A program made the position numbers and the translations under genes. Of a DNA stretch of 64,000 nucleotides, positions 17,405 through 42,475 are shown one piece after another. Within the stretch, counting starts at the first letter, position 1; each line of letters begins with the position of its first letter. The stretch is from an uncultured Alphaproteobacteria bacterium (GTDB lineage Bacteria > Pseudomonadota > Alphaproteobacteria > Caulobacterales > Aquidulcibacteraceae): NCBI GenBank assembly GCA_902826035.1, contig CADEDG010000001.1:38305-102304 (forward strand), read 5' to 3'. Under the pieces are notes generated by a model. That model saw nothing but the letters and a program-made list of their open reading frames with translations, had not been told where the DNA came from and searched no databases.

Positions 17405-17430
17405 GGTTTCCAACTCTTGTTCCACCAGCA

Positions 17431-17454: not shown

Positions 17455-17473
17455 TCAAGCGGCCTTCACTTGA

Positions 17474-17497: not shown

Positions 17498-17543
17498 CAA
17501 GAGGGAAGGGTGGAAAACCGCCCCGGGCGAGGGAGCGCAGCTT

Positions 17544-18254
17544 ATGGATCAACCGATTGCCGTTCAGCAGGCGTATTGGAACGACTGGAACGCGGCCAAG
17601 AACGAGCGCCCGCTTTCTGATATTTCCGCCGACCAGCGCGAGTTGGTGGTGCAGTGGCTTTCCCGGATCGGACGCACCGATCTCAAAATTTTGGAGGTCG
17701 GATGCGGGGCAGGCTGGCTCTGCCCGTCGCTAAAACCATTCGGTCATGTGACCGCCACCGACCTCTCCGAAGGCGTACTCCGCGAAGCCGCCGAGCGTGT
17801 GCCGGACGTCAAGTTCGTCGCCGGCGACTTCATGGAGCTCGACTTGGGGACCGGGGAGTACGATGTGATCGTCAGTCTCGAAGTCTTGTCGCATGTGGCC
17901 GATCACCCGGCCTTTATGGCAAAGCTCGCCAGTCTATTACGCCCCGGCGGCATGCTCATGCTGGCCACGCAAAACCGACCGGTGCTTGAACGCCACAACA
18001 ACGTGCCCCCGCCCGCGCCGGAACAATTGCGCAATTGGGTCGATCGCGATGAATTGAGGGCGTTGCTGATGCCGCACTTTGAGATACGTCAGCTTCGAAC
18101 TATTTCTGCCACGGCTAACAAGGGTTTTTATAGGCTCATTCTTGGGCGCAAAGCCAAGCGCGCTATGCGCGCGCTGTTTGGACGGAGTCTCGAAAACGCC
18201 ATGGCGCGCGCGGGCTTAGGCTGGACGCTGATCGCAATGGTGCAAAAGCGCTAA
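17544..18254 (+). CDS. Class I SAM-dependent methyltransferase (UbiG-like fold)
   Basis: ILEVGCGAG; SLEVLSHV; LRPGGMLML. Confidence 0.88.
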   Translation: MDQPIAVQQAYWNDWNAAKNERPLSDISADQRELVVQWLSRIGRTDLKILEVGCGAGWLCPSLKPFGHVTATDLSEGVLREAAERVPDVKFVAGDFMELDLGTGEYDVIVSLEVLSHVADHPAFMAKLASLLRPGGMLMLATQNRPVLERHNNVPPPAPEQLRNWVDRDELRALLMPHFEIRQLRTISATANKGFYRLILGRKAKRAMRALFGRSLENAMARAGLGWTLIAMVQKR

Positions 18255-20369: not shown

Positions 20370-20400
20370 TTGACCTTCCCATTGTGGGAAGGTGCAGGCT
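20370..20400 (+). promoter_or_regulatory. CueR-type sigma70 promoter with operator
   Basis: -35 TTGACC (20370-20375), 19-bp spacer, -10 CAGGCT. Inverted repeat ACCTTCCCA-TTG-TGGGAAGGT at 20373-20393. Confidence 0.9.
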
Positions 20401-20445
20401 GCTTTTCAAGTCAAACCAGGAGCGCGAGCGCTCGCGTTATCAGCT

Positions 20446-22866
20446 ATGAACACTCACGACCACAGCCACGATCATAAGAGCCAAGCAGCCGCCGGTGGCG
20501 CGCCGCGCGATCCCGTCTGCGGCATGACGCCCAAGCCTGACACGCCGCACAGGCTCATGCACGCAGGCCAAGAGGTGCTGTTCTGCAGTGCTGGCTGCAA
20601 GGCCAAGTTCGAGGCTGATCCCGCGAAATATACCAGGTCCGCCGGCGAGCACGCTTGCTGCGCCAAGCCTGCCGCAGCAGATGAGGCCGGCTCATGCCAT
20701 GCGCACGGCCATGCGCCGCACGGCGCGCCGGCCGTCGATCCGATGACAGTTCCGGCCGGCTCGAAATGGACCTGCCCAATGCACCCCGAAATCGTCCGCG
20801 ATGGGCCGGGCTCATGCCCGATTTGCGGCATGGCGCTTGAGCCGATGATGCCCAGCGCCGACGCCGGACCCAATCCGGAACTGATCGACATGACGCGCCG
20901 CTTCTGGATCGGTGCGGCGCTCGCCTTGCCGGTGCTGGCGCTCGAAATGGGCCGCCACTTCCTTGGTATCGATGGCTTCGTGCCGCCGGCTTGGAACGGT
21001 TGGTTGCAGTTTGCGCTGGCGAGCCCTGTCGTCCTGTGGGGCGGCTGGCCGTTTTTCGAGCGCGGCTGGGCCTCGCTTCAAACCCGCCATCTCAACATGT
21101 TCACTTTGATTGCGCTGGGGACTGGCGTGGCGTGGTTTTACAGCGTCGTCGCGCTCTTTGCGCCGTCGCTCTTTCCGGCGGAGTTCCGAGACGCGCATGG
21201 TCTCGTTGCTGTCTACTTCGAGGCGGCCGCCGTGATCACGGTGCTGGTTCTGTTGGGTCAGGTGCTTGAGCTGCAAGCGCGCGAGCGCACCGGCGGGGCT
21301 ATTCGTGCGTTGCTTGATCTTGCGCCCAAAACGGCGCGGCGTCTGCGCGATGGCGTCGAAGAAGAAGTTCCGCTCGATCAGATCGTCGTGGGCGATCGCC
21401 TGCGCGTGCGTCCGGGTGAGAAAATTCCCGTCGACGCCATGGTGCTCGACGGTCGCTCCTCCATCGATGAATCCATGGTGACGGGCGAATCGATGCCGGT
21501 GACGCGGGAGGGCGGCGAGCGCGTCATCGGCGGGACCCTCAATCAGACAGGCGCATTGGTCATTGAAGCCGATCGCGTCGGCGCCGACACGATGCTCTCG
21601 CGCATCGTCCAGATGGTGGCTGAGGCCCAACGGTCGCGTGCTCCAATTCAGCGGTTGGCGGACAAGGTGTCGGGCTGGTTTGTGCCGGCCGTCATCGTGG
21701 TCGCCGTGATCGCCTTCTTGACCTGGTGGGCGTTTGGCCCATCGCCGGCGTTGTCCTACGGCCTGATCGCGGCGGTCTCGGTGCTGATCATTGCCTGCCC
21801 ATGTGCGCTGGGGCTCGCCACGCCTATGTCGATCATGCAGGGCGTGGGGCGCGGCGCGCGCGCGGGCGTCCTCATCAAGAACGCCGAAGCGTTGGAGCGG
21901 TTCGAGAAGGTTGATACGCTTGTGCTCGACAAGACCGGCACGCTGACCGAAGGCAAGCCGGCGGTGACCGCCATTCACACCGTCGGCGGCGGCGAATTGA
22001 ATGAGATGCTGCGCCTTGCCGCAAGCCTTGAGAATCGCAGCGAACATCCGCTCGGCTTGGCCATTGTAGCAGCAGCGCAAGCGCGTGGCGTTGGGCTTGT
22101 CGAGCCGACAGAATTCGACTCGCCCACTGGCAAGGGCGTCCTCGGCGTCGTTGAGGGGCGCATCATTGTGATCGGTGCGGAACGCTTTCTAGACGAACAG
22201 GGCATCGACGCGTCGGGCTTGAAGAGCGAAGCGGACGCCGCGCGACGCGACGGTGCAACTGCGATCTATGTCGCCATCGACGGTACGCTTTCAGGTCTCT
22301 TTGCGATCGCCGATCCGGTAAAGCCGACGACACTGGCGGCGCTTGAAGCCTTGCGGGCTCAAGGCATGCGGCTCGTCATGTTGACCGGCGACAACCGAAC
22401 CACGGCCGAGGCGGTGGCGCGCGGCCTTGGCATCGATGAGATCGAGGCCGAGGTGTTGCCGGAAGACAAGTCGCGCATTGTCGAGCGCCTTAAACGGGAG
22501 GGGCGCGTGGTGGCGATGGCGGGTGACGGGGTCAACGATGCGCCCGCTCTCGCCGCGGCCGACGTCGGCATCGCTATGGGCGGGGGTACGGATGTGGCGA
22601 TCGAGAGCGCAGGCGTTACGCTGTTGCGCGGCGACCTTGGCGGCATCGTCCGCGCCCGCATCATCTCGCGTGCGGTCATGCGCAACATCCGCCAAAACTT
22701 GTTCTTCGCGTTCGCCTACAACATCGCCGGCATTCCGATCGCCGCGGGCGTTCTCTATCCGATAACCGGGGCGCTGCTTTCGCCGATGATTGCGGCCATG
22801 GCGATGGCGTTGTCGTCCGTATCGGTTATCGCGAACTCTCTGCGCCTGGGCTCTTTGCGGGTCTGA
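20446..22866 (+). CDS. copA: Cu(I)-exporting P1B-1 ATPase with YHS domain
   Basis: DPVCGM..FCSAGC (YHS), WTCPMHP..CPICGM, CPC, DKTGTLT, YN and MALSS. Confidence 0.97.
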
Positions 22867-23127: not shown

Positions 23128-23317
23128 GCACGCCGTGCACTGCGCGAGCTCCGACCATCGCGGCGTGTGCAAGGGTGTCAGGCGCGCTTCGTCATTCTGT
23201 GACGAATAGATTTGCCCTCGCTCGGGCGGGGTAGGCACAAATACTGCTTCAGGAAACGCACCGGACCTTACGTTCAGTTTGTGTGCCAACCATCCCGGAA
23301 ACTCGTTTAGAGGGCGT

Positions 23318-24538
23318 ATGTCGCGCGAGAATTATATCTTCACCAGCGAGAGCGTGTCAGAGGGCCACCCGGATAAGGTGGCCGACCGCATCTCCGACAC
23401 CGTCGTGGACGCGTTCATCGAGGCCGATCCCGAAGCCCGCGTCGCCTGCGAAACCATGGTCACCACTAACCGCATCATCCTCGCCGGTGAAGTGCGGGCC
23501 GGGAAGCCGGGCAATGACAAGGCCGCCAACAAGGCCTTCACTAAGGACATCATCGCGTCGCTGCAGCCGAAGGTCCGCACGGCGGTGAAGGACATCGGCT
23601 ACGAGCAAAAGGGCTTTCACTGGGAGAAGGCGCGCTTCGCCAACTATCTGCATGGCCAGTCGGCGCACATCGCCCAAGGCGTCGATGCGTCGGCGAAGAA
23701 GGATGAAGGCGCCGGCGACCAGGGCATCATGTTCGGCTACGCCTGCGAGGAAACGCCGGAGCTGATGCCGGCGACGCTGCAATACTCGCACAACATTTTG
23801 AAGCGTCTCGCCGAAGTGCGCCACAGCGGCGAACGCCCGGAACTAGAGCCGGACGCGAAAAGCCAAGTCACGCTACGTTACGAAAACGGCAAGCCCGTCG
23901 AGGTCGTCGCCATCGTCGTCAGCCACCAGCACAAGAAAAAACTGGGCGAGAAGAGCTACAGCCAGTCGCGCTTTGCCGAACTCGTAAAGCCGATCGCCGC
24001 TTCGGTTTTCCCTGAGGGGCTCATCACCAAGAAAACCAAGTGGCACATCAACCCAACCGGCAAGTTCGAGATCGGCGGCCCGGATGGCGATAGTGGTTTG
24101 ACCGGCCGCAAGATCATCGTCGACACTTACGGCGGCGCAGCCCCGCACGGCGGCGGCGCATTCTCTGGCAAAGACCCAACGAAGGTGGACCGCTCTGCCG
24201 CTTATGCCTGCCGCTATCTGGCGAAGAACGTTGTCGCCGCCGGCCTTGCACAGCGCTGCACCATTCAGATCAGCTACGCGATCGGCGTCGCTGTGCCGAC
24301 CAGCTTCTACGTCGATCTCCATGGCGCCGACACGATTGATCCCGCGATTCTCGAAGCGAAATTGCCAGAGTTGATCGGCGGCGCGACTCCACGTTCGATC
24401 CGCAACCATCTGAAGCTCAATCGCCCGATCTATGCGCGCACCGCCGCCTACGGCCATTTCGGCCGTCTGCCCGACAATGAAGGCGGCTTCACTTGGGAAA
24501 ACCTGGATCTCGCCGCTGAGTTGCGGCGCCTTCGCTAA
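23318..24538 (+). CDS. metK: S-adenosylmethionine synthetase
   Basis: [32 protein letters not shown] and GGGAFSGKD. Confidence 0.98.
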
Positions 24539-24666
24539 TCGCTTTTGCTCCTTGCTGCGGGCGTTGGCCGGGCGGAACGCTGCCGCCAACCGGTCCAGCC
24601 GCCCCGCAGCCCTTGGCTTCCGCTCGGTTAGCCGCAAAAGTGTCCTCGGAAGAGGCGATCAATCCC

Positions 24667-25245
24667 ATGGCTGCGGACCCAAGCGACTTGCCAGAAGCTG
24701 ATGTGCGGCGCGCACTTGAAGAGGGGCTCGACAAGATCCGTGCCTACCTCCGCTCCAGGCTGGGCGATCCAAATCATGCCGACGAAGTGCTGCAGGCTTT
24801 TTGCGCCCGGGCCTTGGAACGAGCCAGCGATCTGAAAGAGGGCGGCGCGGCGCGTTCCTGGTTGTCGCGCGTACTGGCGACCGCCATCGCCGATCACTAT
24901 CGCGGCCTCGCCCGGCGACGGGCGCGCGAAGCGCCAGCCGAGGAGCTGAGCTCTCTCGCAGCCGAGACAGAAGCGGACAGCGCTGCTTGCGCGTGTTTGC
25001 TGGCGCTCCTGGATGCTCTTGCCGCAAAGGATGCGGCGCTCATTAGAAACATCGATCTCGAGGGCCGAGATCGGACGAGTGTCGCCGCGAATCTGGGTTT
25101 GACCTTAAATGCGCTGACCGTCCGCTTACACCGCGCGCGGGCGCGGCTAAGAGAGCTGGTGCTGCGACTCTGCGCCGTGTGCGTCATCCACGGCTTTGGC
25201 GAGTGCGAATGTCCGCCGCCCAACCCGGCGAGTGCGGAACACTGA
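24667..25245 (+). CDS. ECF sigma factor with CxC linker and C-terminal Cys-rich domain (CorE/SigZ-like)
   Basis: Sigma2 and sigma4 (LTVRLHRARARL); linker CAC; tail CAVCVIHGFGECEC; no adjacent co-oriented anti-sigma. Confidence 0.85.
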   Translation: MAADPSDLPEADVRRALEEGLDKIRAYLRSRLGDPNHADEVLQAFCARALERASDLKEGGAARSWLSRVLATAIADHYRGLARRRAREAPAEELSSLAAETEADSAACACLLALLDALAAKDAALIRNIDLEGRDRTSVAANLGLTLNALTVRLHRARARLRELVLRLCAVCVIHGFGECECPPPNPASAEH

Positions 25246-25541: not shown

Positions 25542-25988
25542 TCATTCTTCGTCCACGCCGCGCAACAATTCTTCACGCACGATCATGTCGAACCGCGCCT
25601 GTTGATCGGCATTGAGCACAGCACGCATTTCGAAGACGTGCGCGATAGCGTCTCTTTGGGTTTGGCCCATGGCGTTGTGAAACCGATCAATCGCTTGGCT
25701 GAGGCGCTCACTCTGGGCGTGATCCTCGACCACGGCGGCGGCGATATCCCGCGCGGCCGCGCGCAGCTCGGCGTCAAGGGCCGCTTGGCGCAATGCGTAA
25801 CCGGCTTCGATCGCTTCCAGACGCCGGTCCTGTTCGGGCGTCAGATCAAGTTCGCGATGAACCGCGGCGTCGAGCGTGTCCCGATGGGTGTCGGAACGTG
25901 TGAGAATTGTCCCGACAAACACGCCCCCCAGCCCGGAGCCGAGCCCCACGAGTGCTGCGAGCGCCAGCAGCTTCCAGGTTTTCAACAT
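25542..25988 (-). CDS. Periplasmic heavy-metal sensor, CnrX-like (module 2)
   Basis: AAVHRELDL, FHNAMGQTQ and HVFEMRAVL; paralog of 16689..17126. Confidence 0.88.
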   Translation of the reverse strand: MLKTWKLLALAALVGLGSGLGGVFVGTILTRSDTHRDTLDAAVHRELDLTPEQDRRLEAIEAGYALRQAALDAELRAAARDIAAAVVEDHAQSERLSQAIDRFHNAMGQTQRDAIAHVFEMRAVLNADQQARFDMIVREELLRGVDEE

Positions 25989-25991
25989 GAC

Positions 25992-26237
25992 TTATCGGCC
26001 GAGGGCAGTGGCGGGCGCATAGGGCTGATCGAGCGCAAACGGTCCAACATCGACCGTAGCCGACGCGGCGGCCGTCGATACGCCAACGGCGGAACTGACC
26101 ATCAGGACGAGGGCGCAGACCCCGGCGACCGCGCCGTTGGCGCCAGCGCCGGCGCGGTGTCGCGCGCGCGCGTCAATACGAGCCCAGACATCGCTTTCCA
26201 GTCCGTCCAATGCTGTGTCGATGTCCACCCGGCCCAA
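25992..26237 (-). CDS. Anti-sigma factor, CnrY-like (module 2); start may be GTG 26228
   Basis: LDGLESDVWARI, TM helix, FALDQPYAPATALG; paralog of 17123..17404. Confidence 0.78.
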   Translation of the reverse strand: MGRVDIDTALDGLESDVWARIDARARHRAGAGANGAVAGVCALVLMVSSAVGVSTAAASATVDVGPFALDQPYAPATALGR

Positions 26238-26319: not shown

Positions 26320-26467
26320 CTGGAACAGCTAGCCCATCGCGCTGCGGCAGATCAAGAATGAGACGCTCAAGACGCACTTGCAGGAGGTTGATCCAAAGCA
26401 AAGCACGGGTTCAGGTTAGGCGCGACCTTGTCATGGGGTCCCGGTTTTGGCGGCCTGCGAGGCGACC

Positions 26468-27103
26468 ATGAAACGCATGACGGCTCAGGCTTTGGTGCAG
26501 TCGGGGCAGGCCCGCTCGCCGCTGCGACGCGTCGCCTTCACCGGCGGGTTCGATGATCTGATTGCAGGCGCCCGGAGCGGCGATCGGGCGGCATTCAGCA
26601 CGCTGATGAGAAGCCACAAAGACGATCTGTTTCGCTTCGTGCGCCGGCGCGTCGCCAACGCCGACGCGGCAAGCGATATCGTTCAAGAAGCCTTCGTGGC
26701 AGCCTGGAGCGCGATGGCAAACTTCGATCCGGAGCGCTCGTTCAAGACCTGGCTGCACGCCATCGCGTTGAACAAGTGCCGTGACGCGGCGCGCCGCGCC
26801 GCGACCCGCCGAGCTTTCTGGGGCGACTGTCCCGACGGCGACGATTTGCGCGTCGCCGATGAGCGGCCATCGCCCGAAGCGGAGACAGTGAGCCGCGATG
26901 AGTTGCGAATGCTGCGCGGGGCGCTGGCGACCTTGCCGGAGCATCTGCGCGAGGCGCTGATGCTGACCGCCGTCGATGGTCTCTCGCAAGCAGCCGCCAG
27001 CGCGACCCTTGGATGCTCGGTCAAATCGCTTGAATATCGCGTCCACCGGGCGCGTGAATTGCTCACAGCCGAGATGGAACGCAGCGCCATGCCGCGCCGC
27101 TAG
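26468..27103 (+). CDS. ECF sigma factor, CnrH-like (module 2)
   Basis: AASDIVQEAF, TWLHAIALNKCRDA and LEYRVHRAR; divergent from its Y-X pair. Confidence 0.88.
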   Translation: MKRMTAQALVQSGQARSPLRRVAFTGGFDDLIAGARSGDRAAFSTLMRSHKDDLFRFVRRRVANADAASDIVQEAFVAAWSAMANFDPERSFKTWLHAIALNKCRDAARRAATRRAFWGDCPDGDDLRVADERPSPEAETVSRDELRMLRGALATLPEHLREALMLTAVDGLSQAAASATLGCSVKSLEYRVHRARELLTAEMERSAMPRR

Positions 27104-27147: not shown

Positions 27148-28299
27148 TTGACGACGGGTTCCATACTTACGGTCAATTGCGGCTCATCGAGCGTGCGCGT
27201 TGCGTGCTTTGCGCCTCGCTTGGCCTGGCGTGCGCATCTGAGCGGCATTGGCCGCGCCAAAGCGCAACTCACCATCGAACGCGCTGGTGAGAGCAAGACT
27301 ATTGATCAAGCGCCTGCCGGCGATCATCGCCAAGCGCTTGAGGCGCTCTTCAACGCCGCGCCGCCGGCTGCGCCGGTCGCGATTGGCCACCGCGTCGTCC
27401 ATGGCGGCATCGACTTCGTCGCGCCCACGCTGCTTCAGCCTGATGTTGAGGCGAGATTGCTGGAATTGGCCGCCATGGCGCCATTGCACCAAGCGGCCAA
27501 TCTTGCCGGCATCGCGGCGGCGCGTGCGCGCTGGCCGCGCTCTCGCCAGATCGCCTGCTTTGATACCGCCTTCCACGCAAATCTACCCACAGCGGCGGCG
27601 ATGATGGCGCTGCCGCGGGATCTGTTTGCCGCCGGTGTCCGCCGCTTCGGCTTTCATGGATTGTCCATTGCATCGATCCTTGCGGCGTTGCGGCGCGACG
27701 GCGTCGATGTCGGCCGCGAACGCTTGATTGTCGCCCATCTGGGTGCTGGCGCGTCGATCTCGGCCATTCGGAGCGGACGCAGCATTGAGACCTCGATGGG
27801 GTTTTCGACCGTGTCTGGCTTGCCGATGGCGACGCGAAGCGGCGACATCGACCCCGGCGCGGTTATGCACCTGCTGCGCGGAGGTCTGTCCGTAAACCAA
27901 GTTGAGGATTTGCTCCATCGCCGCTCTGGTCTGCTCGGCATATCGGGTGTGAGCGCGGACATGGCTGAATTGCTTGCCTCGACCGAGGCGGGTGCAAGTG
28001 AAGCGGTCGATGTGTTTTGCCAATCGGGCCGACGCTGGCTTGCGGGGCTTGCCGGCGTGCTGGGCGGCGTCGACCGGGTCGTGTTTACTGGAGGAGTTGG
28101 TGAAAATGCGCCGCGCGTACGCGCCAACATATGCGAAGGCCTCGCCTTCATGGGCCTGGCGCTCGACGCGGCGCGCAACGAATCGGGCGCATGCGTGATT
28201 TCCTCCGCTGCCGCAGCCGTGATCGTTGAAGTCCGAAAGAGCGACGAGGAAGGCGAGATCGCCCGCCAGACCCAAGCTCTCCTAACAGGACCTAGTTAG
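27148..28299 (+). CDS. ackA: Acetate/propionate kinase
   Basis: LTVNCGSSS, GHRVVHGG, CFDTAFH, FGFHGLS, HLGAGAS, TRSGDIDP and FTGGVGEN. Confidence 0.93.
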   Translation: MTTGSILTVNCGSSSVRVACFAPRLAWRAHLSGIGRAKAQLTIERAGESKTIDQAPAGDHRQALEALFNAAPPAAPVAIGHRVVHGGIDFVAPTLLQPDVEARLLELAAMAPLHQAANLAGIAAARARWPRSRQIACFDTAFHANLPTAAAMMALPRDLFAAGVRRFGFHGLSIASILAALRRDGVDVGRERLIVAHLGAGASISAIRSGRSIETSMGFSTVSGLPMATRSGDIDPGAVMHLLRGGLSVNQVEDLLHRRSGLLGISGVSADMAELLASTEAGASEAVDVFCQSGRRWLAGLAGVLGGVDRVVFTGGVGENAPRVRANICEGLAFMGLALDAARNESGACVISSAAAAVIVEVRKSDEEGEIARQTQALLTGPS

Positions 28300-28315
28300 G
28301 CTGAGGCCTCTGTCA

Positions 28316-28339
28316 GGGCGTGGACCCTGGCGTGCGTAT
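28316..28339 (+). promoter_or_regulatory. Putative ECF promoter of the phosphoketolase operon
   Basis: (A)GGGCGTGGACCCTGGCGTGCGTAT. Confidence 0.75.
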
Positions 28340-28392
28340 AGATTGAAGGCGGAACTGAAGGGCGTGCGCCGGCCCCAATCCGGATTATTGTC

Positions 28393-30765
28393 GTGCCAGC
28401 TTCACCGGACGATCTGTGGCGAGATGGCTATGGCGTGATCCGCCACCGGCCGGAAACCGTCGAGAGAATAGAAAATCTCGTCGCGCGGCACTGGACGGAG
28501 GGCGCGCTCGCCGATCGAAACGCGGCGCTCGCCCTGTGCGCCGCCGCCGATCGCCTCGCCAACGCCGCGATGTGGGTCGTGGCGCACATGAGCTATGCCA
28601 CCCGTGTCGATGTGAGCGGCGCCGAACTCCCGGCTGAGGTGTTCAAGGGCCAACCCGAGGGACACGTGGGCGGCTCGCTCAACGCCGCGATCGCCTTTGT
28701 CGGCTATCATCTGGCCAATGCGCTGAGCGGAAAGACGCGCGCCTGGATCTTAGGGCAGGGCCATTGCGTGGCCGCGATCGAAGCGGTCAACGCGCTCTTG
28801 GAGGATGTCTCTCCCGCTCAACAGGGGCGGTACGGGCGCAGCGAAGCTGGCCTCTCGCGGCTCGCGGCCGACTTCTATTCCTATGCGTTGACGTCAGATG
28901 GGCGCCCAGCGGCGCCGCTCGGCAGTCACGTCAATCCGCACACTGCAGGCGGCGTCTCCGAAGGCGGTTATCTGGGTTTTGCCGAAACCCAATACGTTCA
29001 CATGCCTTTGCCGGGTGAGCGCTTGGTCGCGTTCTTGAGCGACGGGGCGTTCGAAGAACAGCGTGGCTCCGACTGGTCGCCGCGTTGGTGGCGCGCCGAA
29101 GACAGCGGCTTTGTTGTGCCCGTCATGATCCTCAATGGCAGGCGCATCGAGCAGCGCACCGAAATCGGCCAGGAGGGGGGCGCGGAGTGGCTCGCTCAGC
29201 ATCTGCGGTTAAGCGGTTTTGATCCCATCATCATCGACGGTCACGATCCGCTTGCCTACGCCTGGGCCATCATCGAAGCCGAATCTGCGCTCACGCATTT
29301 CACGTCCATGTCGGAGCGGGCTTATCCAGCGCGGCTTCCCTATGTGATCGCGCGCTGCGTCAAGGGCTATGGCTTTCCGGGGGCGGGCACAAATCGCGCG
29401 CACAATTTGCCGCTTGCCGGAAATCCGCGCGCCGACGCCCAGGCGCGACGGCAATTCAATGAAGGCGCACGCGCGCTCTTTGTGCCGAAAGTCGAACTCG
29501 ATGCGGCGGCGCAGGCGTTTGCTGTGCACGATGCGCAAGAGCGGCCGCGCGAAAGCCGCCATCCACTGGCAATGAGGTCTATCCCGTCGCCGGTCTTGCC
29601 TGAGCCGGCTTGGGCGCCCGAGGGGGGCGCAAGCTGCGCCATGGAGGCGCTCGACGCACTTTTTGTTGAGATCGTCAAAGCCAATCCGAATCTACGCGTG
29701 CGCGTTGGCAACCCAGACGAGTTGAAAAGCAATCATATGGGCGCAACGCTCGACTTGTTGCGCCACCGCGTAAATGCGCCCGAACCGGGCGCGCCGGAAG
29801 CCGTGGACGGCGCCGTCATTACTGCGCTCAATGAGGAAGCGGTCATTGGTGCGGCGCTCGGCAACAAAGGCGGGCTCAATCTCGCGGTGAGCTACGAAGC
29901 CTTCGCCATGAAAATGCTGGGGGCGCTGCGCCAAGACATCATCTTTGCCCGCCGCCAGCGCGAGATCGGCGCGCCGCCGCGTTGGCTGTCGGTGGCGCTC
30001 ATCGCTACGTCACACACCTGGGAAAACGCTAAGAACGAACAATCGCACCAGGATCCGACCTTGCCCGAGGCGCTGCTGGGTGAAATGGCGGATACCGCGC
30101 GCGTGCTTTTTCCGATCGACGCCAATTCCGCGGCGGCCGCACTTCGCAGTGTCTATGCCTCGCACGGTCAGATCGCCTGTCTCATTACGCCCAAACGCGC
30201 TGTGGCTCGCCTCCTCAGCGGGGCGCGCGCCGAACAAGCCGTGGCTGACGGCGCAGCGCATCTCCTGGGCGACCCCAGAGAGGCTGACCTCCAGTTCGTC
30301 GCGATTGGCGCCTATCAAACAGCGGAAGCCCTACGTGCGAGCGAACGCTTAATGGCGCGTGGCCGTTCAGCATGCGTCACCGCGCTTGTGGAGCCCGCCC
30401 GCTTTCGCGCCGGGCGCGACGACATCGAAACGGCCTATGCCGCGAGTGAGGCGCAGCGCAGACATTTCTTCCCGGACGAGACGCCGCGCGTTTTTCTCAC
30501 CCATACTCGCCCTGAGCCTATGCTTGGGGCTTTGCGCCGGCTCGGCGCCGGACCTTCGCGCACGAGCGCGCTTGGCTTCATCAATCGGGGCGGCACACTC
30601 GACGTATTCGGTATGCTGTTCGCCAATCGCTCAACCTGGGCGCATGCGCTTGAGGCCGCAGCTCGCATCCTCGGCTGTGGTCGCGAGGAGTTTTTGTCGG
30701 AGGTCGAAATGACCGCACTCGACGGGCGCGGCGACCCCAGTGTTCTGCGCGCTCCGTCTCAATAG
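28393..30765 (+). CDS. Divergent phosphoketolase (Xfp-like, ThDP-dependent)
   Basis: 790 aa; GQGHC, SHVNPHTAG, GGYLG, SDGAFE..LNG ThDP motif, KGYG..HNLP, NPDELKSN and NEQSHQDP. Confidence 0.82.
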   Translation: MPASPDDLWRDGYGVIRHRPETVERIENLVARHWTEGALADRNAALALCAAADRLANAAMWVVAHMSYATRVDVSGAELPAEVFKGQPEGHVGGSLNAAIAFVGYHLANALSGKTRAWILGQGHCVAAIEAVNALLEDVSPAQQGRYGRSEAGLSRLAADFYSYALTSDGRPAAPLGSHVNPHTAGGVSEGGYLGFAETQYVHMPLPGERLVAFLSDGAFEEQRGSDWSPRWWRAEDSGFVVPVMILNGRRIEQRTEIGQEGGAEWLAQHLRLSGFDPIIIDGHDPLAYAWAIIEAESALTHFTSMSERAYPARLPYVIARCVKGYGFPGAGTNRAHNLPLAGNPRADAQARRQFNEGARALFVPKVELDAAAQAFAVHDAQERPRESRHPLAMRSIPSPVLPEPAWAPEGGASCAMEALDALFVEIVKANPNLRVRVGNPDELKSNHMGATLDLLRHRVNAPEPGAPEAVDGAVITALNEEAVIGAALGNKGGLNLAVSYEAFAMKMLGALRQDIIFARRQREIGAPPRWLSVALIATSHTWENAKNEQSHQDPTLPEALLGEMADTARVLFPIDANSAAAALRSVYASHGQIACLITPKRAVARLLSGARAEQAVADGAAHLLGDPREADLQFVAIGAYQTAEALRASERLMARGRSACVTALVEPARFRAGRDDIETAYAASEAQRRHFFPDETPRVFLTHTRPEPMLGALRRLGAGPSRTSALGFINRGGTLDVFGMLFANRSTWAHALEAAARILGCGREEFLSEVEMTALDGRGDPSVLRAPSQ

Positions 30766-30780
30766 AAAGAAGCCAACGAC

Positions 30781-32145
30781 ATGACTTTGACTTTAACGAG
30801 CCTTGGCGCTGCTGGGACTGTCACCGGTTCAAAGCACCTCATGGAGGCGGATGGCCGGCGCGTTCTGGTGGACTGCGGCATGTTCCAGGGGCTCAAGGTC
30901 CTGCGCGAGCGCAATTGGGCGCCGCTGGCGATCCCGCCGGATTCGATCGACGCGGTGGTGCTGACGCATGCGCACTTGGACCACAGCGGCTATCTCCCGA
31001 AGCTCGTGCGCGACGGCTTTAGGGGCCCCGTCTATTGCTCCTCCGCGACGGCCGATCTCTGCGACATCCTGTTGAAGGATAGCGCCAGAATAGCCGAGAA
31101 CGACGCCGAATACGCCAACCGTAGAGGCCACACAAAGCATAAGCCCGCGCTTCCACTTTACACCGTGCGCGACGCTGAGGCCGCATTGAAGCAGCTGAAG
31201 GCGATCGCCTTCGAGACGGAAACAAGCGTTGAAGGCGGCGCCAAGATGCAGCTGCGCCGTGCAGGCCACATCCTCGGCGCCGCGACGGTCGAATTCAATT
31301 GGCAAGGGCGCGGAATCGTATTTTCCGGCGATTTGGGACGTTATGATGACGTGTTCATGCCTGATCCCGCCCCGGTGAACGCGGCCGATTATGTGGTCGT
31401 TGAATCGACCTATGGCGACCGCATCCATCCCAAAAACGATCCGATGGAAGCCTTGGGCGCGGTCGTGGAGCGGACGGTGCGCCGCGGCGGCACCGTCGTT
31501 ATTCCCGCGTTCGCGGTCGGGCGCACCCAGGTGCTGCTCTATCATCTGTGGATGCTGAAGCGCGCGGGACGCATCAAGTCCGTGCCGATCTTTCTCGACA
31601 GTCCGATGGCGATCAATGCGACCGAACTCCTATGCGGCCATTTAGACGACCATCGCTTTTCAGCCGAGACCTGCGAGCAATCCTGCGCCATCGCCACCTA
31701 TGTGCGCGATGTCGAAGACTCAAAGGCCATTGTGTCAAATCCGATGCCCAAGATCGTCATTGCAGGCAGCGGCATGGCGACCGGCGGGCGCGTCTTGCAC
31801 CACATCAAGGCGTTCGGGCCCGAGGCCAAGAATACGATCCTGTTTGCCGGCTATCAGGCCGTCGGCACGCGAGGCGCCCGTCTGCTTGCTGGTGAAACCG
31901 AGATCAAGATGTTTGGCCAATGGATTCCGATCCGGGCTGAAATCGCCAACCTGCCTGAACTCTCAGCCCACGCCGACGCCGGCGAGATCATCCGCTGGCT
32001 GAGCGGCTTTGAAAAGCCGCCGCGCCGCACCTTCATAGTGCACGGCGAGCCGGACGCTTCCGATGCGCTGCGCGTGCGCATCGAGCGCGAACTCGGCTGG
32101 GACGCGGCGGTTGTCGATGATCAGCGCAGGTATGAACTCGCATGA
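30781..32145 (+). CDS. MBL-fold beta-CASP ribonuclease-like protein
   Basis: GAAGTVTGS, THAHLDHSG, AGHILG, VESTYG, SAHAD and VHGE. Confidence 0.92.
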   Translation: MTLTLTSLGAAGTVTGSKHLMEADGRRVLVDCGMFQGLKVLRERNWAPLAIPPDSIDAVVLTHAHLDHSGYLPKLVRDGFRGPVYCSSATADLCDILLKDSARIAENDAEYANRRGHTKHKPALPLYTVRDAEAALKQLKAIAFETETSVEGGAKMQLRRAGHILGAATVEFNWQGRGIVFSGDLGRYDDVFMPDPAPVNAADYVVVESTYGDRIHPKNDPMEALGAVVERTVRRGGTVVIPAFAVGRTQVLLYHLWMLKRAGRIKSVPIFLDSPMAINATELLCGHLDDHRFSAETCEQSCAIATYVRDVEDSKAIVSNPMPKIVIAGSGMATGGRVLHHIKAFGPEAKNTILFAGYQAVGTRGARLLAGETEIKMFGQWIPIRAEIANLPELSAHADAGEIIRWLSGFEKPPRRTFIVHGEPDASDALRVRIERELGWDAAVVDDQRRYELA

Positions 32146-33671
32146 GCGCCGCGCCAACGACCAGGGAGGGCGAACACGCTTCGCATCTTGTGGCCAAGCG
32201 CCTCAAGCTTCTCTCGCAAGACGACGCGATCGTTCTGATGCGCACCGATTGTCACGTCTGCAAGTCCGAAGGGCTGTCCGCGCGCGCTCGCGTGCTCTTG
32301 ACCGCTGGTGATCGGCGCGTGATCGCAACGCTCTACCAGGTCGAGAACGATTGGCTGACTGTCGATGAAGCAGGGTTGTCCGAGGCGGCGTGGAAACGCC
32401 TGGCCGTAGCCGATGGTGAACACATAGCCGTCAGTCATGCGCCGCCGCTTGACTCGCTTGCTGACGTGCGACGGCGCATGTATGGCGGCCGCCTCGATCA
32501 GCGCGCGTTCCGCTCTATCATCGGCGACATCGCCGGTGGTCGCTATGTCGACATTCATCTCGCCACGTTTATCGCGGCGTGCTCGGCCTTTCCGCTCGAT
32601 CTCGATGAAATCACCTCGCTCACGCGCGCCATGGTCGAAGTGGGCGAGCGTCTCTCCTGGCCTTCGGTGATGGTGGTCGACAAACATTGCGTGGGCGGCC
32701 TTCCTGGCAATCGCACCACGCCAATCGTGGTCGCTATCGTCGCGAGCTTGGGGCTCCTCATGCCCAAGACTTCTTCGCGCGCGATCACCTCGCCGTCGGG
32801 CACGGCCGACACAATGGAGACGTTGGCGCCCGTCGATCTCGATATTGCCGCCATGCGCCGCGTCGTCGAGGCCGAAGGCGGCTGCATCGCCTGGGGCGGC
32901 GCCGTGCGCCTCTCGCCAGCCGATGACGTGCTCATCCGCATCGAGCGCGCGCTTGATATCGACACCGAAGGTCAGCTCATCGCCTCGGTCCTGTCCAAAA
33001 AAATCGCCGCGGGCGCCAGTCACGTCGTGCTCGATCTGCCTGTGGGGCTCACAGCGAAGATCCGTACGCAGGAGGCGGCGCGCGATCTGAGCGCGCACAT
33101 GACCGCCGTCGCCGAGGCGTTTGGTCTTAAGACACGCTTTGTATTGAGCGATGGCGCGCAGCCCGTTGGACGCGGCATCGGGCCGGCGCTCGAAGCCAAC
33201 GACGTGCTCGCCGTGCTTGTCGGCGCTGCCGATGCGCCAACAGACTTGCGCGAGCGGGCGCTCGCGATCGCGGGCGCGGTGCTTGAGCTTTCAGGAACGG
33301 CGCCCAACGGACAAGGGTATGAGTTGGCGCGCGCTGCGCTCGACGACGGGCGCGCTTGGGCGAAGTTTCAAGCCATCTGCGAAGCGCAGGGCGGCATGCG
33401 CACGCCTCCGAGCGCGCCGCTCACGCGCCCATGGGCGGCGGCCCGTTCGGGCATTCTCACCAACATCAACAATCGCAAGATCTCCCGCCTCGCTAAGCTC
33501 GCGGGCGCGCCCGACGATCCCGCCGCCGGAATTGTGTTGCATGTGCGGTTAGGTGACGGCGTCGTCGCCGGAGCCCCGCTTGTGACCGTGCACGCCCAAG
33601 CACCTGGGCAACTCGCCTATGCGCTCGACTATGCGGCGGCCAACCCAGACATATTCGAAATCGAGGCTTGA
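32142..33671 (+). CDS. AMP/thymidine phosphorylase family protein (long, archaeal AMP-phosphorylase-like form)
   Basis: N-terminal CHVC domain; DKHCVGGLPGNRTT, KTSSRAITSPSGTAD and SKKIAAG. Confidence 0.9.
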   Translation: MSAAPTTREGEHASHLVAKRLKLLSQDDAIVLMRTDCHVCKSEGLSARARVLLTAGDRRVIATLYQVENDWLTVDEAGLSEAAWKRLAVADGEHIAVSHAPPLDSLADVRRRMYGGRLDQRAFRSIIGDIAGGRYVDIHLATFIAACSAFPLDLDEITSLTRAMVEVGERLSWPSVMVVDKHCVGGLPGNRTTPIVVAIVASLGLLMPKTSSRAITSPSGTADTMETLAPVDLDIAAMRRVVEAEGGCIAWGGAVRLSPADDVLIRIERALDIDTEGQLIASVLSKKIAAGASHVVLDLPVGLTAKIRTQEAARDLSAHMTAVAEAFGLKTRFVLSDGAQPVGRGIGPALEANDVLAVLVGAADAPTDLRERALAIAGAVLELSGTAPNGQGYELARAALDDGRAWAKFQAICEAQGGMRTPPSAPLTRPWAAARSGILTNINNRKISRLAKLAGAPDDPAAGIVLHVRLGDGVVAGAPLVTVHAQAPGQLAYALDYAAANPDIFEIEA

Positions 33672-34540
33672 ACGTGACGCGCCTTTACCTCCCCATGCCC
33701 GGAAACGAGACCATCGCCCGTGCGCTTGCTCTCTCGGCCGGCGCCGAACTCGGCGCGATCGAGACGCGCCGCTTTCCCGATGGCGAAGCCTATGTTCGGC
33801 TTCTCTCGGCGGTCGAGGGCCGCGAGGTTGAGATTGTCTGCACGCTAGCGCGGCCGGACGAGCAGTTTCTGAGCCTTATCTTCGCCGCCGAAACTGCGCG
33901 CGAGATGGGCGCGGCGCGCGTCAATCTCATCGCGCCTTATTTAGCCTACATGCGCCAGGACAAAAGGTTCAAGGACGGCGAGGCGATTTCCTCAGCGCAT
34001 TTCGCCCGCCTGCTGTCGCAATCGTTCGACGGGCTCATCACCGTCGATCCGCATCTGCATCGCCGCCGCGATTTGGGCGAAATCTTCACCATCGCCACGC
34101 GCGTAGAGCATGCAGCGCCCCTCCTTGCCGATTGGATCAAAGACAATGTGAGCGACCCCCTCGTGGTAGGCCCCGATGCGGAGAGCGAGCAGTGGGTTGC
34201 AGCGGTGGCCGGGCGGGCCGGCGCGCCGCACATCGTCTCGAACAAAACCCGCCGCGGCGACCGCGACGTGAGCATTGACCTGCCTGATCTGTCCGCTCTA
34301 CGCGGAAGGCGTGCCGTTCTTGTCGACGACATTGTCTCCTCGGGGCGCACCATGATCGAGACTGCGCGCAAGTTGGCCGCAGCTGGCATGGCCAAGCCGG
34401 TTTGTGTCGCCGTGCATGCGCTCTTTGCGGATCAATCCTACGCCGAGCTCTTGAGCCTGTGCGAGCGCGTCGTTTCGACAGACACCGTGCCGCATGCTTC
34501 GAACGCCATTAGCGTAGCGGCGCTGCTGGCGCCGGCGTGA
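33668..34540 (+). CDS. prs: Ribose-phosphate pyrophosphokinase family protein
   Basis: RFPDGEAYVR, PYLAYMRQD, VGPDAES and LVDDIVSSGRT. Confidence 0.92.
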   Translation: MNVTRLYLPMPGNETIARALALSAGAELGAIETRRFPDGEAYVRLLSAVEGREVEIVCTLARPDEQFLSLIFAAETAREMGAARVNLIAPYLAYMRQDKRFKDGEAISSAHFARLLSQSFDGLITVDPHLHRRRDLGEIFTIATRVEHAAPLLADWIKDNVSDPLVVGPDAESEQWVAAVAGRAGAPHIVSNKTRRGDRDVSIDLPDLSALRGRRAVLVDDIVSSGRTMIETARKLAAAGMAKPVCVAVHALFADQSYAELLSLCERVVSTDTVPHASNAISVAALLAPA

Positions 34541-35558: not shown

Positions 35559-35841
35559 GCCCGTCATCTCCCTTGGCGCGATGTTGATCCTGATTATACG
35601 CACGCCGCCCTAGCGGCCCCGGCGCAGTCGAACGTGGCCCACAGGTTCTCACGGTTTCGTGCCGCAGCCGTAGGCTTCTTTGGAGGCTTCGTGTTGCGCC
35701 GTTGACTGGGCGAAAAGCGGGCGGATCGCTGGCAGGGAAGGATTGGTCCAACGCTTCGTTGATCCTTTCTTCGCGCCTCGACTTGTGGCCACAGCGATTG
35801 CCATCAAGCATGTGCGCCGCGTCTGTGATGTGATTTGTCAT
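35515..35841 (-). CDS. Small protein with INEALDQSFPASDPP motif (C-terminal extent doubtful)
   Basis: The DEAL-x-x-SFPASDP motif marks a widespread small-protein family; GAAGG RBS. The tail overlaps a promoter and the next gene. Confidence 0.55.
   Translation of the reverse strand: MTNHITDAAHMLDGNRCGHKSRREERINEALDQSFPASDPPAFRPVNGATRSLQRSLRLRHETVRTCGPRSTAPGPLGRRAYNQDQHRAKGDDGHAYIEFRTGAGSGA
35596..35619 (-). promoter_or_regulatory. Putative ECF promoter of the 35558 lipoprotein
   Basis: Minus strand (G)GGGCCGCTAGGGCGGCGTGCGTAT. Confidence 0.7.
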
Positions 35842-36304: not shown

Positions 36305-36328
36305 ATACGCGTGAGGCTCGACGATCCC
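36305..36328 (-). promoter_or_regulatory. Putative ECF promoter upstream of 36226
   Basis: Minus strand (G)GGGATCGTCGAGCCTCACGCGTAT. Confidence 0.7.
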
Positions 36329-36474
36329 CGGAGCTGACGTTTGAACCGAAGACGGGCGTTCGCTAGCCATTCTCTTTCGCCGGTGCGGCGAGGCCTGGCT
36401 CGGCGCGAGTTGTCGGGCGAGAAGACTACGAGCGCCGCGATCTCGCTTGTAGTGCATCGATTGGTTCAGCGAGG

Positions 36475-37583: not shown

Positions 37584-38591
37584 CTAAGGCGCGACGACGA
37601 CGTTCTGCGGCGTTCCTCGCGCAAATGCCTCGATGTTGGCGAGCGTTGTATCGATGATGCGCGCGATTGCCTCTGTCGTATTGTAGGCGTTGTGCGGCGT
37701 CACCAGCACGTTGGGAAATCGAAGCAGAACGTGGTTGGCGACGAGCGCTTTGAGGTCGATGCTGCTCTCGGAATCCGCGCGAAAGATTTCGGCCTCCTCG
37801 CGCAACTGCGGCTCCCGCGGCAGCACGTCGAGGCCTGCGCCCGCGAGGCGCCCCTCGGCGAGGGCGCGCACCAGCGCCTCCACGTCGACCACAGAGCCCC
37901 GGGCGGTGTTGAGGAGCACGGCGCCCGGCTTCATCAGCGCAAGCTCCCGTTCGGAAACGAGGCCTTGCGTTTGCGGCGTTGCCGGAACGTGCAAGGTGAC
38001 GATGTCGGCCTCGGCGAGGGCAGCGTCGAGGGAAGCATAACGAAAGCCGAGGCGCCGCGCGGCCGTTTCGTCCGGCCGGTCGTCGACCGCGATGACATGC
38101 ATGGCAAAGCCCTGAGCGATTTCAATCACACGCATGCCAATGCGCCCTGCGCCGATGACGGCGATGGTCTTGTCTTTGAGTTCAAAGCCGCGAAGGCCCG
38201 CCTGATCGAATCGGCCGCGCCGGGTGCGCTCGGCGGCGTCAGCGATCTTGCGTGCAAGTCCCAGCAGCAGCGCAAACACATGCTCGGCCACGGTGGAGTC
38301 GCCGTAGCCCGGCACGTTGCAAACAATGATCCCACGGCTTTGGCAGTAGCCAAGGTCGATGTGGTCATAGCCGGTGGAGCGCGTGGCGATAAGCTTGAGG
38401 TGGGCAAAGCGGCTCAGCACGCGCGCGTCGAGCCGTGAATAGACGAAAGGCGATACAATCTCGGCGCCGGCATGGTCGCTGGCGGCGGATTCATTGACTA
38501 TGCCGCGTGTGCAAGACACTTCATGCGCTGGCGTCAACCGCAAGCAGGCCTCATGCTCCCACTGCTCGGCTTCGAAGACAGCGATCTTCAT
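37584..38591 (-). CDS. D-isomer-specific 2-hydroxyacid dehydrogenase (D-lactate dehydrogenase-like)
   Basis: RSTGYDHID, VAEH, GAGRIG, LLNTARG, GLDVLPRE and VTPHNAY. Confidence 0.92.
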   Translation of the reverse strand: MKIAVFEAEQWEHEACLRLTPAHEVSCTRGIVNESAASDHAGAEIVSPFVYSRLDARVLSRFAHLKLIATRSTGYDHIDLGYCQSRGIIVCNVPGYGDSTVAEHVFALLLGLARKIADAAERTRRGRFDQAGLRGFELKDKTIAVIGAGRIGMRVIEIAQGFAMHVIAVDDRPDETAARRLGFRYASLDAALAEADIVTLHVPATPQTQGLVSERELALMKPGAVLLNTARGSVVDVEALVRALAEGRLAGAGLDVLPREPQLREEAEIFRADSESSIDLKALVANHVLLRFPNVLVTPHNAYNTTEAIARIIDTTLANIEAFARGTPQNVVVAP

Positions 38592-41680: not shown

Positions 41681-41791
41681 GCAAAGAAAAACTCCAGAAG
41701 CGAGATTTAGCGACGTCTCGATAGAGGCGCGCTTGACAAGGCAGGGGCGCGGCTTCGATGTCGTTTGCGTCGGCCGGCGAGAGGAGTGTCC

Positions 41792-42475
41792 ATGTGCTTT
41801 TCAGCTGAAGCGAGTTTCACTGCGGCGGCTTTGCTCATCCCGCTGGGCGGCGTCGCTGTTGCGCGGGCCATGAAGGTTACGCCGAAATATGCCCCGCTGT
41901 GCACGCTGCCGTTGTTGTTCGGCTTGCAGCAGGCGATGGAAGGACTGGTCTGGGTGGCAGGCGGCGGGCCCGATGGCGCCTGGGTCGAACGGTTCTCGCT
42001 CGCCTATATGTTCTTTTCGTGGATCGCCTGGCCGGTCTGGGTGCCGGTCTCCGTCTATTTTCTTGAGCCCCCTCGCCGGCGGCCGCTCTATCTCGCGTTT
42101 GCCGTCGGCGGCGCCATGCTGGGTGGTCTGCAATACATTCCGTATTTCGCGCATGAAGGCTGGCTGAGGACCACTTTCCTCCAGTACGCGATCAGGTACA
42201 GCGACACCCAATTGCTCGATGCGCTCATGACCCGCGAGGCGACCTATCTCTTCTATCTCGTCTTTATCATCGTGCCGCTCCTCGTCTCGAGCGACCGCGC
42301 GGCGCGCATCTTCGGCGTGCTGGTAACGTTTGTGCTTGCCATCACCTATTTCTTCTTCTCGTTTGCCTACATATCCGTTTTTTGCATGGGCGGCGCGATC
42401 ATGTCGTCCTATCTCGTCTGGATGATATTCCAGAAAGGCGCCGACGCGCCGCCGCGCGCGGCAGCGGCGGCATGA
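41792..42475 (+). CDS. Multi-pass membrane protein (DUF6629-like)
   Basis: GAGGAG RBS; MCFSAEASF, QQAMEG and SVFC motifs. Confidence 0.7.
   Translation: MCFSAEASFTAAALLIPLGGVAVARAMKVTPKYAPLCTLPLLFGLQQAMEGLVWVAGGGPDGAWVERFSLAYMFFSWIAWPVWVPVSVYFLEPPRRRPLYLAFAVGGAMLGGLQYIPYFAHEGWLRTTFLQYAIRYSDTQLLDALMTREATYLFYLVFIIVPLLVSSDRAARIFGVLVTFVLAITYFFFSFAYISVFCMGGAIMSSYLVWMIFQKGADAPPRAAAAA

Follow-up and report, generated by a model that had tools for sequence, protein, structure and literature searches.

The stretch analysed here (the window) comprises 64,000 nucleotides of an uncultured alphaproteobacterium of the Aquidulcibacteraceae (Caulobacterales; assembly GCA_902826035.1, contig CADEDG010000001.1, positions 38,305 to 102,304). 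The source genome has about 3.1 Mb and is 96% complete. The open reading frames (ORFs) of the window and the family searches revealed a cassette of five co-directional genes at positions 27148–34540. They encode an acetate kinase (ackA), a divergent phosphoketolase-family enzyme (XFP-like), a beta-CASP ribonuclease homologue of the metallo-beta-lactamase fold (MBL, gene mbl), an archaeal-type nucleoside phosphorylase (gene tp), and a homologue of ribose-phosphate diphosphokinase (Prs) (Table 1).

A previous sequence-only reading had described these genes as one tightly coupled cassette under a metal-type promoter. The coupling of the last four genes can be read directly from the sequence: 15 nucleotides (nt) separate the TAG of the XFP-like gene from the ATG of mbl, and the mbl/tp and tp/prs junctions are 4-nt overlaps (ATGA and TTGA, respectively). 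The position of ackA directly after a gene for an extracytoplasmic function (ECF) sigma factor is also as described, with 44 nt between the stop of the latter and the start of the former. The promoter claim is plausible for the four genes behind the motif AGGG-N15-GCGTA and fails for ackA: this gene lies upstream of the motif, and the geometry therefore rules out that this promoter copy drives it.

Table 1. Features of the window, counted from its first letter
Feature	Positions	Strand	Evidence or remark
Acetate/propionate kinase (ackA)	27148–28299	+	Pfam Acetate_kinase 3.6e-93; TIGR00016 296.6 bits (cut-off 293.4)
ECF-type promoter motif AGGG-N15-GCGTA	28315–28338	+	AGGGCGTGGACCCTGGCGTGCGTA; 55 nt upstream of the XFP-like start codon
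Divergent phosphoketolase-family enzyme (XFP-like)	28393–30765	+	Pfam XFP 2e-40, XFP_N 2e-14
Beta-CASP MBL-fold ribonuclease homologue (mbl)	30781–32145	+	Lactamase_B, Beta-Casp and RMMBL, all above cut-off
Long-form (archaeal-type) nucleoside phosphorylase II, AMP/NMP-phosphorylase-like (tp)	32142–33671	+	PRK04350 659 bits (cut-off 434)
PRK07199-type ribose-phosphate diphosphokinase homologue, archaeal class III-like (prs)	33668–34540	+	NF005537/PRK07199 419 bits (cut-off 322)
CnrX-like periplasmic metal sensor	25542–25988	-	PF13801 Metal_resist 3.2e-11; divergent from the ECF sigma gene
Small putative CnrY-like anti-sigma ORF	25992–26237	-	Assigned from position only
Motif copy upstream of the CnrX/CnrY-like operon	~26320	-	
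ECF sigma factor, CnrH-like	26447–27103	+	Sigma70_r2, Sigma70_r4_2 and Sigma70_ECF domains
Second ECF sigma factor	16132–16692		45% identity to the CnrH-like sigma factor
Second motif copy, then type II GAPDH	48508–49902	+	Motif at 48508–48531; NF003251 397 bits (cut-off 185)
Third sigma factor, SigZ/CorE-like	24613–25245		CAC motif; Cys-rich C-terminus CAVCVIHGFGECEC; between metK and the CnrX-like operon
ORF of 370 aa	25359–26471	+	Treated as spurious
metK, extra copy	23279–24538		
P1B ATPase	20392–22866		
SAM-dependent methyltransferase	13770–14564		
SAM-dependent methyltransferase	17403–18254		
SAM-dependent methyltransferase, ICMT-like	47391–48134		
SAM-dependent methyltransferase, CFA synthase	53065–54330		
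Motif-like site GGG-N15/16-GCGTA	35597–35620	-	Convergent with the cassette
Motif-like site GGG-N15/16-GCGTA	~36306–36329	-	Convergent with the cassette
D-2-hydroxyacid dehydrogenase	37584–38591	-	
Protein of 442 aa	39233–41664	-	No Pfam or NCBIfam match
DUF6629 membrane protein	41765–42475	+	

Protein families of the cassette

The phosphorylase passes the cut-offs of two family models (PRK04350, and TIGR02645 with 558 bits against 435). Its best solved relative is the AMP phosphorylase of Thermococcus kodakarensis (PDB 4GA5; 41% identity over 425 residues, E = 4e-98), with which it shares the segments GG(V/L)PGN(K/R)T and SSRAITS..GTAD. This alignment begins inside the N-terminal domain and covers only part of the archaeal N-terminal domain. 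The alignment to the AMP phosphorylase model TIGR03327 (AMP_phos) is longer: residues 18–502 match positions 4–488 of 500, which shows a nucleoside phosphorylase II (NP-II) fold that carries the archaeal-type N-terminal extension. Archaeal nucleoside monophosphate (NMP) phosphorylases release ribose-1,5-bisphosphate from AMP, CMP, and UMP in a reversible reaction, and in haloarchaea they are found only together with RuBisCO (PMC9700705). The NMP shunt of T. kodakarensis (TK0352, PDB 4GA4–4GA6, an isomerase, and a type III RuBisCO) has the same long-form NP-II phosphorylase with the archaeal N-terminal domain. The presumed product is also the same, ribose-1,5-bisphosphate, which ties nucleotides to central carbon metabolism (PMC9700705). 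The archaeal shunt works with the isomerase and RuBisCO, whereas the partners of the bacterial enzyme are a beta-CASP RNase, a Prs homologue, and, at some loci, a member of the phosphoketolase family. The bacterial set further differs in its host, its mobility, its stress regulators, and a phosphorylase that misses the AMP_phos equivalog cut-off.

The closest solved structure of the MBL protein is the RNase TTHA0252 of Thermus thermophilus (E = 5e-82; PDB 2DKF, 3IEK–3IEM), which has the same size and the same three-domain beta-CASP architecture. The metal motif HxHxDH is intact, and the THAHLDH of the window's protein aligns with TTHA0252. TTHA0252 is not known to share an operon with a phosphorylase and a Prs.

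The Prs homologue also passes TIGR01251 (193 bits, cut-off 113). Among solved structures, the class III Prs of Methanocaldococcus jannaschii (PDB 1U9Y, 4e-41) is the closest to it. Its identity to the housekeeping Prs of the same genome, encoded on contig C31, is only 27%. The motifs RFPDGE and PYLxYxRQD and the ribose-phosphate loop DDxxSxGxT are kept. At two other places, the protein departs from the assayed Prs enzymes of classes I and III, which have DLH/NPH and PDxGG: DPHLHR and GPDxESxQW stand there instead, and both are invariant in the 74 sequences of its subclade (A, see below). At the corresponding loops, the housekeeping Prs has SPDVGGVVRAR and LELHAGQIQGFF, and the M. jannaschii enzyme has PDkGa at the PDxGG position. 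In Staphylococcus aureus, copper inhibits Prs, phosphoribosyl pyrophosphate (PRPP) becomes limiting, and higher prs expression lowers copper sensitivity (PMC10249872). Such poisoning is a concrete reason why a copper regulon might include a second Prs of a different type.

The XFP-like protein is a divergent member of its family. Its XFP_N (PF09364) and XFP (PF03894) matches exceed the Pfam cut-offs, and it aligns over its full length with the phosphoketolase (XFP) structures of Bifidobacterium (profile E = 1e-30). Its best NCBIfam phosphoketolase score is 135.7 bits, far below cut-offs of 777–1518, and Pfam XFP_C has no match in it. The names phosphoketolase and AMP phosphorylase, used in the sequence-only reading, apply at the level of families and not at that of equivalogs. 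We counted in the alignment ten equivalents of active-site residues of Bifidobacterium XFP (H91=H64, H124=H97, H179=H142, H337=H320, E443=E437, E481=E479, Y501=Y501, N548=N549, H552=H553, K601=K605, with the XFP residue second). All ten are invariant across the alignment of the XFP-like subfamily, as are D217-G218 and N248 of the site for thiamine diphosphate (ThDP) and Mg. Substitutions affect H548 (K547 here), R442 (H448), and GDGE (SDGA). The protein is probably an active ThDP enzyme of the phosphoketolase type, possibly with a different substrate. The phosphoketolases of Bifidobacterium and Lactococcus (PDB 3AI7, 3AHC, 8IO6) share with it the full-length fold, the ThDP/Mg site (DG...N), the ten residue equivalents, and an acetate kinase alongside; the window's protein differs from them by its weak profile match, the missing XFP_C, and a subfamily found only beside the MBL, phosphorylase, and Prs genes. 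In databases, this subfamily bears the misnomer "xylulose 5-phosphate 3-epimerase".

The ackA of the cassette is the only acetate kinase gene of the genome (a single tblastn match), and no stand-alone pta was found there. A pairing with a canonical pta was rejected: the sole PTA_PTB match covers profile positions 110–319 in the C-terminal part of a 588-aa ORF elsewhere, which is probably a malic-enzyme-type fusion. An acetate kinase without a stand-alone Pta partner fits a supply of acetyl-phosphate by the XFP-like enzyme.

Conservation and genomic contexts

To place the cassette among its relatives, we gathered 82 loci: 80 found with a phosphorylase profile in contigs from one genome per species and two on plasmids. 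Neighbours were scored with the proteins of the window, and recurrent ones were identified by de novo clustering of all ORFs of the loci. Two of the loci (L004 and L005) are 98–99% identical to that of the window, whose host is accordingly a Hyphomonadaceae/Terricaulis-like alphaproteobacterium. A Prs homologue lies beside the phosphorylase in 76 of the 82 loci and a beta-CASP gene in 73, nearly always immediately upstream. The XFP-like gene occurs in 29, always immediately before the beta-CASP gene, and ackA is found near the phosphorylase in 14. The core is therefore the triad MBL–phosphorylase–Prs, with the XFP-like gene and ackA as optional accessories. Its gene order and overlaps are kept across Alpha-, Beta-, and Gammaproteobacteria and beyond.

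The phosphorylase family is large (more than 8000 protein clusters in public data), and we also drew an unbiased sample of 301 evenly drawn alphaproteobacterial genomes, of which 47 (~16%) have a PRK04350-type phosphorylase. We examined the regions around 40 of these enzymes. The triad is present in this sample too, and the sequences separate into three subclades. Subclade A (at least 51% identity to the window's phosphorylase) has the order mbl-tp-prs, with a P1B ATPase within 10 kb in 6–7 of 10 loci. Subclade B (43–48%) has the orders tp-prs-mbl or tp-mbl, as in the bll3117 layout of Bradyrhizobium. Subclade C (29–42%) consists of solitary copies, mostly in small genomes. The solitary enzymes (loci L112–L124, from G002, G018, G023, G038, G057, G090, G214, and other genomes of 1–2 Mb) have no MBL or Prs neighbour and form a separate long-form subclade, possibly with a different role. 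The XFP-like gene is in none of the 40 loci, and its subfamily occurs in one of the 301 genomes, the window's own.

Where the XFP-like gene does occur, it is tied to the triad. It stands directly before mbl and the phosphorylase gene in 29 of 29 loci that have it and in four of four loci seeded with it. The latter, from long contigs, have the orders prs-xfp-mbl-tp or (ackA-)xfp-mbl-tp-prs, and all lie beside metal genes, in Cu, Hg, or RND contexts. For instance, the Mesorhizobium locus has P1B ATPases with MerR, DUF411, and LTXXQ, and the Hyphomonas locus has ECF/CnrX, ICMT, and CusB/CusF. The five-gene order of the window, ackA-xfp-mbl-tp-prs, recurs in a JGI metagenome contig (L086, positions 4373–15126), directly after merT-merP-merA. 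Because it is found solely alongside the module, we regard the XFP-like subfamily as a dedicated fourth component.

The earlier statement that similar clusters occur in metal islands is borne out by these contexts. P1B ATPases lie within 10 kb in 31–38 of the 82 loci (~40%). With about six P-type ATPase genes in 3.1 Mb in the source genome, chance would place one that close in a few percent of cases, and the link is therefore real. Among the recurrent neighbours are P-type metal ATPases (38 loci), MerR/CueR regulators (15), ICMT-like proteins (15), type II glyceraldehyde-3-phosphate dehydrogenase (GAPDH) (12, in several of them directly adjacent to the module), DUF6629 (11), FixJ-type regulators (9), DUF411 (8), FixL-like kinases (7), tandem universal stress proteins (7), polyhydroxyalkanoate synthase (7), and CnrX-like sensors (6).

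Several other genes accompany the module. The 442-aa protein of the window is present in 11 of the 82 loci (including L008–L010, L041, L042, L056, L075, and L076), and in Phenylobacterium its gene immediately precedes mbl, the ECF motif separating the two. The D-2-hydroxyacid dehydrogenase and the DUF6629 membrane protein also occur as a pair in the vicinity of the module, both on rhizobial plasmids and in the genera Ancylobacter, Bosea, and Hansschlegelia (L002, L030, L031, L039); the dehydrogenase reached no equivalog cut-off that would make it a D-lactate dehydrogenase. On the conjugative plasmid pNXO2 of Sphingomonas sanxanigenens (L001), the triad stands between DUF2933/ICMT on one side and Hsp20, cueR, a P1B ATPase, and copCD/copAB on the other, with a Hachiman defence system and a TIR protein a few kb away. 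In the metagenome contig L086, the module precedes a TetR/MacB-type ABC system with a YHS domain. Papers on the lxa locus of Burkholderia cenocepacia mention a 51-kDa MBL protein (BCAM0300) together with an alcohol dehydrogenase and a phosphate acetyl/butyryl transferase, and the triad was not confirmed there.

Promoters and stress regulators

The window as a whole is one large metal-resistance island. It encodes two RND pumps, a CopA-type multicopper oxidase with CopB, three P1B ATPases, LTXXQ and PepSY proteins, an RbbA/HlyD ABC exporter with an ICMT-like gene, a CFA synthase, a type II (archaeal-type) GAPDH, and an extra metK. The motif that the sequence-only reading had noticed before the XFP-like gene is present there (cited at 28316) and strongly enriched in this island: AGGG-N15-GCGTA has 11 matches in the window, about 40-fold above the 0.27 expected, and none of 100 shuffles reached this number. 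Genome-wide there are 29 matches, and these 11 fall within 2% of the genome. Copies precede the multicopper oxidase operon, both sensor operons, the GAPDH/P1B-ATPase pair, the ABC exporter operon, and the XFP-like operon. No plus-strand copy was found between the sensor operon and the sigma gene.

CnrX-like sensors of the PF13801 family adjoin both ECF sigma genes, in a layout like that of CnrYXH of Cupriavidus metallidurans, the described paradigm (PMC6851896). Both systems have an ECF sigma factor, a PF13801 periplasmic sensor, a small upstream ORF, auto-regulated divergent promoters, and resistance genes in the regulon. The window differs in what its regulon contains (in place of cnrCBA, copper determinants together with the metabolic XFP-like operon and type II GAPDH) and in having two paralogous modules plus a Cys-rich, CorE-like sigma factor. 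Given these features, "metal-type promoter" seems a fair label for the motif before the XFP-like gene. The operon is probably induced by periplasmic metal stress, because this type of promoter is common to the genes for the copper oxidase, the P1B ATPase, and type II GAPDH.

Some further features of the island were noted. The 370-aa ORF that overlaps the minus-strand CnrX/CnrY-like genes is Arg-rich and has no family match. The two motif-like sites downstream of the cassette lie upstream of an exoD-like gene and a neighbouring small ORF. The second metK of the genome, on contig C71, is 85% identical to that of the island. The short contig C155 (~1900–5200) carries a P1B ATPase 82% identical to that at 20392–22866, with two copies of the ECF motif, and possibly represents a portion of the island that was duplicated or mis-assembled.

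Three other Caulobacterales/Hyphomonadaceae genera carry GGG-N15-GCGTA a short way ahead of the module: Phenylobacterium (four loci), Brevundimonas (B. viscosa), and Hyphomonas (two loci). Boxes of the FNR/FixK type (TTGA-N6-TCAA) precede the first module gene in five of 74 loci, where ~1.4 are expected, including those of Bradyrhizobium denitrificans and Achromobacter. In Bradyrhizobium diazoefficiens, bll3117-bll3116-bll3115 (phosphorylase, Prs, and MBL) is induced under micro-oxia at the level of protein and RNA and is a direct target of FixK2, as is bll2518-bll2517, which encodes phosphoketolase and acetate kinase (PMC6515984, PMC9104804). This species thus has the same three families in one operon and a co-regulated phosphoketolase–acetate kinase pair. 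It differs in the order (tp-prs-mbl), in a phosphorylase from the sister subclade (~45% identical to the window's), in its control by FixK2 and oxygen instead of ECF and metal, and in the separate locus of the phosphoketolase. The induction of the triad by FixK2 and low oxygen implies that the module serves general stress and is not copper-specific, which is at odds with the copper-stress purpose first proposed. The module is plugged into different stress regulators in different lineages, and copper is one trigger among others.

Possible functions of the module

These observations lead us to propose a horizontally mobile, stress-switched module for the recycling of ribonucleotides and ribose phosphates, with an optional acetyl-phosphate/ATP branch. 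We put the probability of this proposal at roughly 40%. The analysis establishes what families the genes belong to, how the operon is built and conserved, the motif of the regulon, and the genomic setting; the enzymatic steps, the response to metal, and the purpose are inferred from these. The beta-CASP RNase would cut RNA to 5'-NMPs, and the archaeal-type phosphorylase would convert NMP and phosphate to the free base and ribose-1,5-bisphosphate; by homology, both steps seem reasonable. The Prs homologue, translationally coupled to the phosphorylase, would tie ribose phosphate to PRPP, using ribose-5-phosphate or possibly the bisphosphate. Bases and sugar phosphate would thus become reusable when the normal supply of PRPP and energy fails. 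In about a third of the close relatives and in the window, where ackA is added, the phosphoketolase-family enzyme would turn pentose phosphate into acetyl-phosphate and glyceraldehyde-3-phosphate, and this branch would yield ATP without respiration. Such an optional, substrate-level branch is in keeping with the extension by the XFP-like gene and ackA, with a type II GAPDH gene that follows the same motif, and with the recurrent 2-hydroxyacid dehydrogenase. The four-gene operon of the window would be read from the CnrH-type ECF promoter. The constancy and translational coupling of Prs suggest that the core concerns the ribose-phosphate/PRPP node rather than ATP production.

Several points weigh against this proposal. 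The phosphorylase scores 464.4 bits with the AMP_phos equivalog TIGR03327, below the cut-off of 535. The reaction of the Prs homologue is uncertain because the invariant PDxES replaces PDxGG. To break down NMPs and also make PRPP would seem futile, unless time or purpose keeps the two processes apart. We infer the metal induction of the operon from the motif alone. A literature search found no functional study of the bacterial module, whose genes appear only as lines in Bradyrhizobium regulon tables; this agrees with the earlier remark that it has no established function. Finally, neither a ribose-1,5-bisphosphate isomerase of the IF-2B family (PF01008) nor RuBisCO (PF00016) has a match in the 96%-complete genome, whereas positive-control genomes matched. 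This rules out a complete archaeal AMP pathway in the source genome. Every version considered here is weakest where the fate of ribose-1,5-bisphosphate is concerned.

The route favoured in the sequence-only reading led from RNA via NMP, ribose-1,5-bisphosphate, and pentulose phosphate to acetyl-phosphate and glyceraldehyde-3-phosphate, and thus to ATP, free of iron–sulfur enzymes under copper stress. The homology of each enzyme fits this route, as do an XFP-like gene exclusive to the module and an ackA without a pta partner. Type II GAPDH and the D-2-hydroxyacid dehydrogenase resemble the enzyme set of a phosphoketolase fermentation, and the low-oxygen induction in Bradyrhizobium fits respiration-independent ATP. 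The route is, however, only partly supported: its first steps, to ribose-1,5-bisphosphate, are reasonable by homology, but with no isomerase, no RuBisCO, and no other known link to a ketopentose in the genome, the next step is missing. The XFP-like gene is absent from 53 of the 82 close loci and from all 40 unbiased ones, and ackA from 68 of the 82, so the core cannot depend on either. The most constant partner, Prs, has no role in the route, and burning RNA gives a small ATP yield. As the purpose of the cassette, ATP production along this route appears unlikely.

A different chemistry is about as unlikely. Here, the phosphorylase and the Prs homologue would be a two-enzyme unit around ribose-1,5-bisphosphate and PRPP, and the RNase and the XFP-like enzyme would be secondary. 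The unit might convert ribose-1,5-bisphosphate directly to PRPP, salvage bases via ribose-1,5-bisphosphate independently of PRPP, or remove AMP and so uphold the energy charge. This would suit the pair with the 4-nt overlap as the most conserved part of the module, the invariant DPHLHR and GPDxESxQW in place of the canonical Prs loops, the reversibility of the archaeal reaction (PMC9700705), and a genome with no known consumer of ribose-1,5-bisphosphate. Yet the ordinary motifs RFPDGE, RQD, and DDxxSxGxT are all kept, the score for the NCBIfam Prs subfamily lies above its cut-off, and the alternative reactions have no direct evidence.

More doubtful still is the idea that the module represents the pentose bisphosphate pathway in a third, bacterial version. 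The NMP phosphorylase would make ribose-1,5-bisphosphate from RNA-derived nucleotides, and the altered Prs homologue would interconvert it with PRPP or make it directly. A phosphoketolase-family enzyme, in place of RuBisCO or an aldolase, would cleave the pentose (bis)phosphate to acetyl-phosphate and glyceraldehyde-3-phosphate. Plasmids and islands would then have mobilised the archaeal-type set as a survival kit that is independent of respiration and is switched on by metal-sensing ECF sigma factors or FNR/FixK.

We give less weight to the view that the island carries metal-tolerant stand-ins for the copper-sensitive housekeeping Prs, GAPDH, and MetK, acting independently, such that the operon is no pathway. 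Copper does inhibit Prs in S. aureus, and more prs expression lowers copper sensitivity (PMC10249872); a separate housekeeping prs and the second metK lie outside the island, and the same motif precedes the gene for an additional GAPDH, the archaeal-type (type II) enzyme. But there is no housekeeping enzyme that the phosphorylase or the RNase could stand in for, both are coupled to prs in translation and accompany it in ~90% of loci across phyla, and the same triad belongs to low-oxygen regulons with no metal genes nearby. It is highly improbable that the genes are no metabolic unit at all, whether as chance neighbours or hitch-hikers of a mosaic island or as a system for defence or toxicity. 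The island is indeed mosaic, conjugative plasmids carry some related copies beside defence genes (Hachiman, for example), and MBL homologues match Pfam Anti-Pycsar_Apyc1, but these matches are weak and rank beneath general MBL-fold domains. PADLOC, which matched no family in any of the five proteins, rules out a known anti-phage system, and gene order and overlaps are conserved from Alpha- to Gammaproteobacteria and beyond.

The window adds three things to what was known of the module: it is wired to a CnrH-type ECF regulon, its link to metal islands is quantified, and the XFP-like subfamily is exclusive to it. The module is carried by conjugative plasmids and metal islands. If a recycling role is correct, bacteria use an archaeal-style nucleotide phosphorylase route, and a distinct Prs subfamily and a distinct phosphoketolase subfamily acquire a function. 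Metal-resistance islands, usually seen only as efflux and oxidation systems, would gain a metabolic arm for the maintenance of nucleotides, PRPP, and ATP, in line with recent work in which copper was found to poison Prs as well as the pentose phosphate pathway (PMC10249872). One metabolic need, common to both, would then link copper stress with low-oxygen dormancy.

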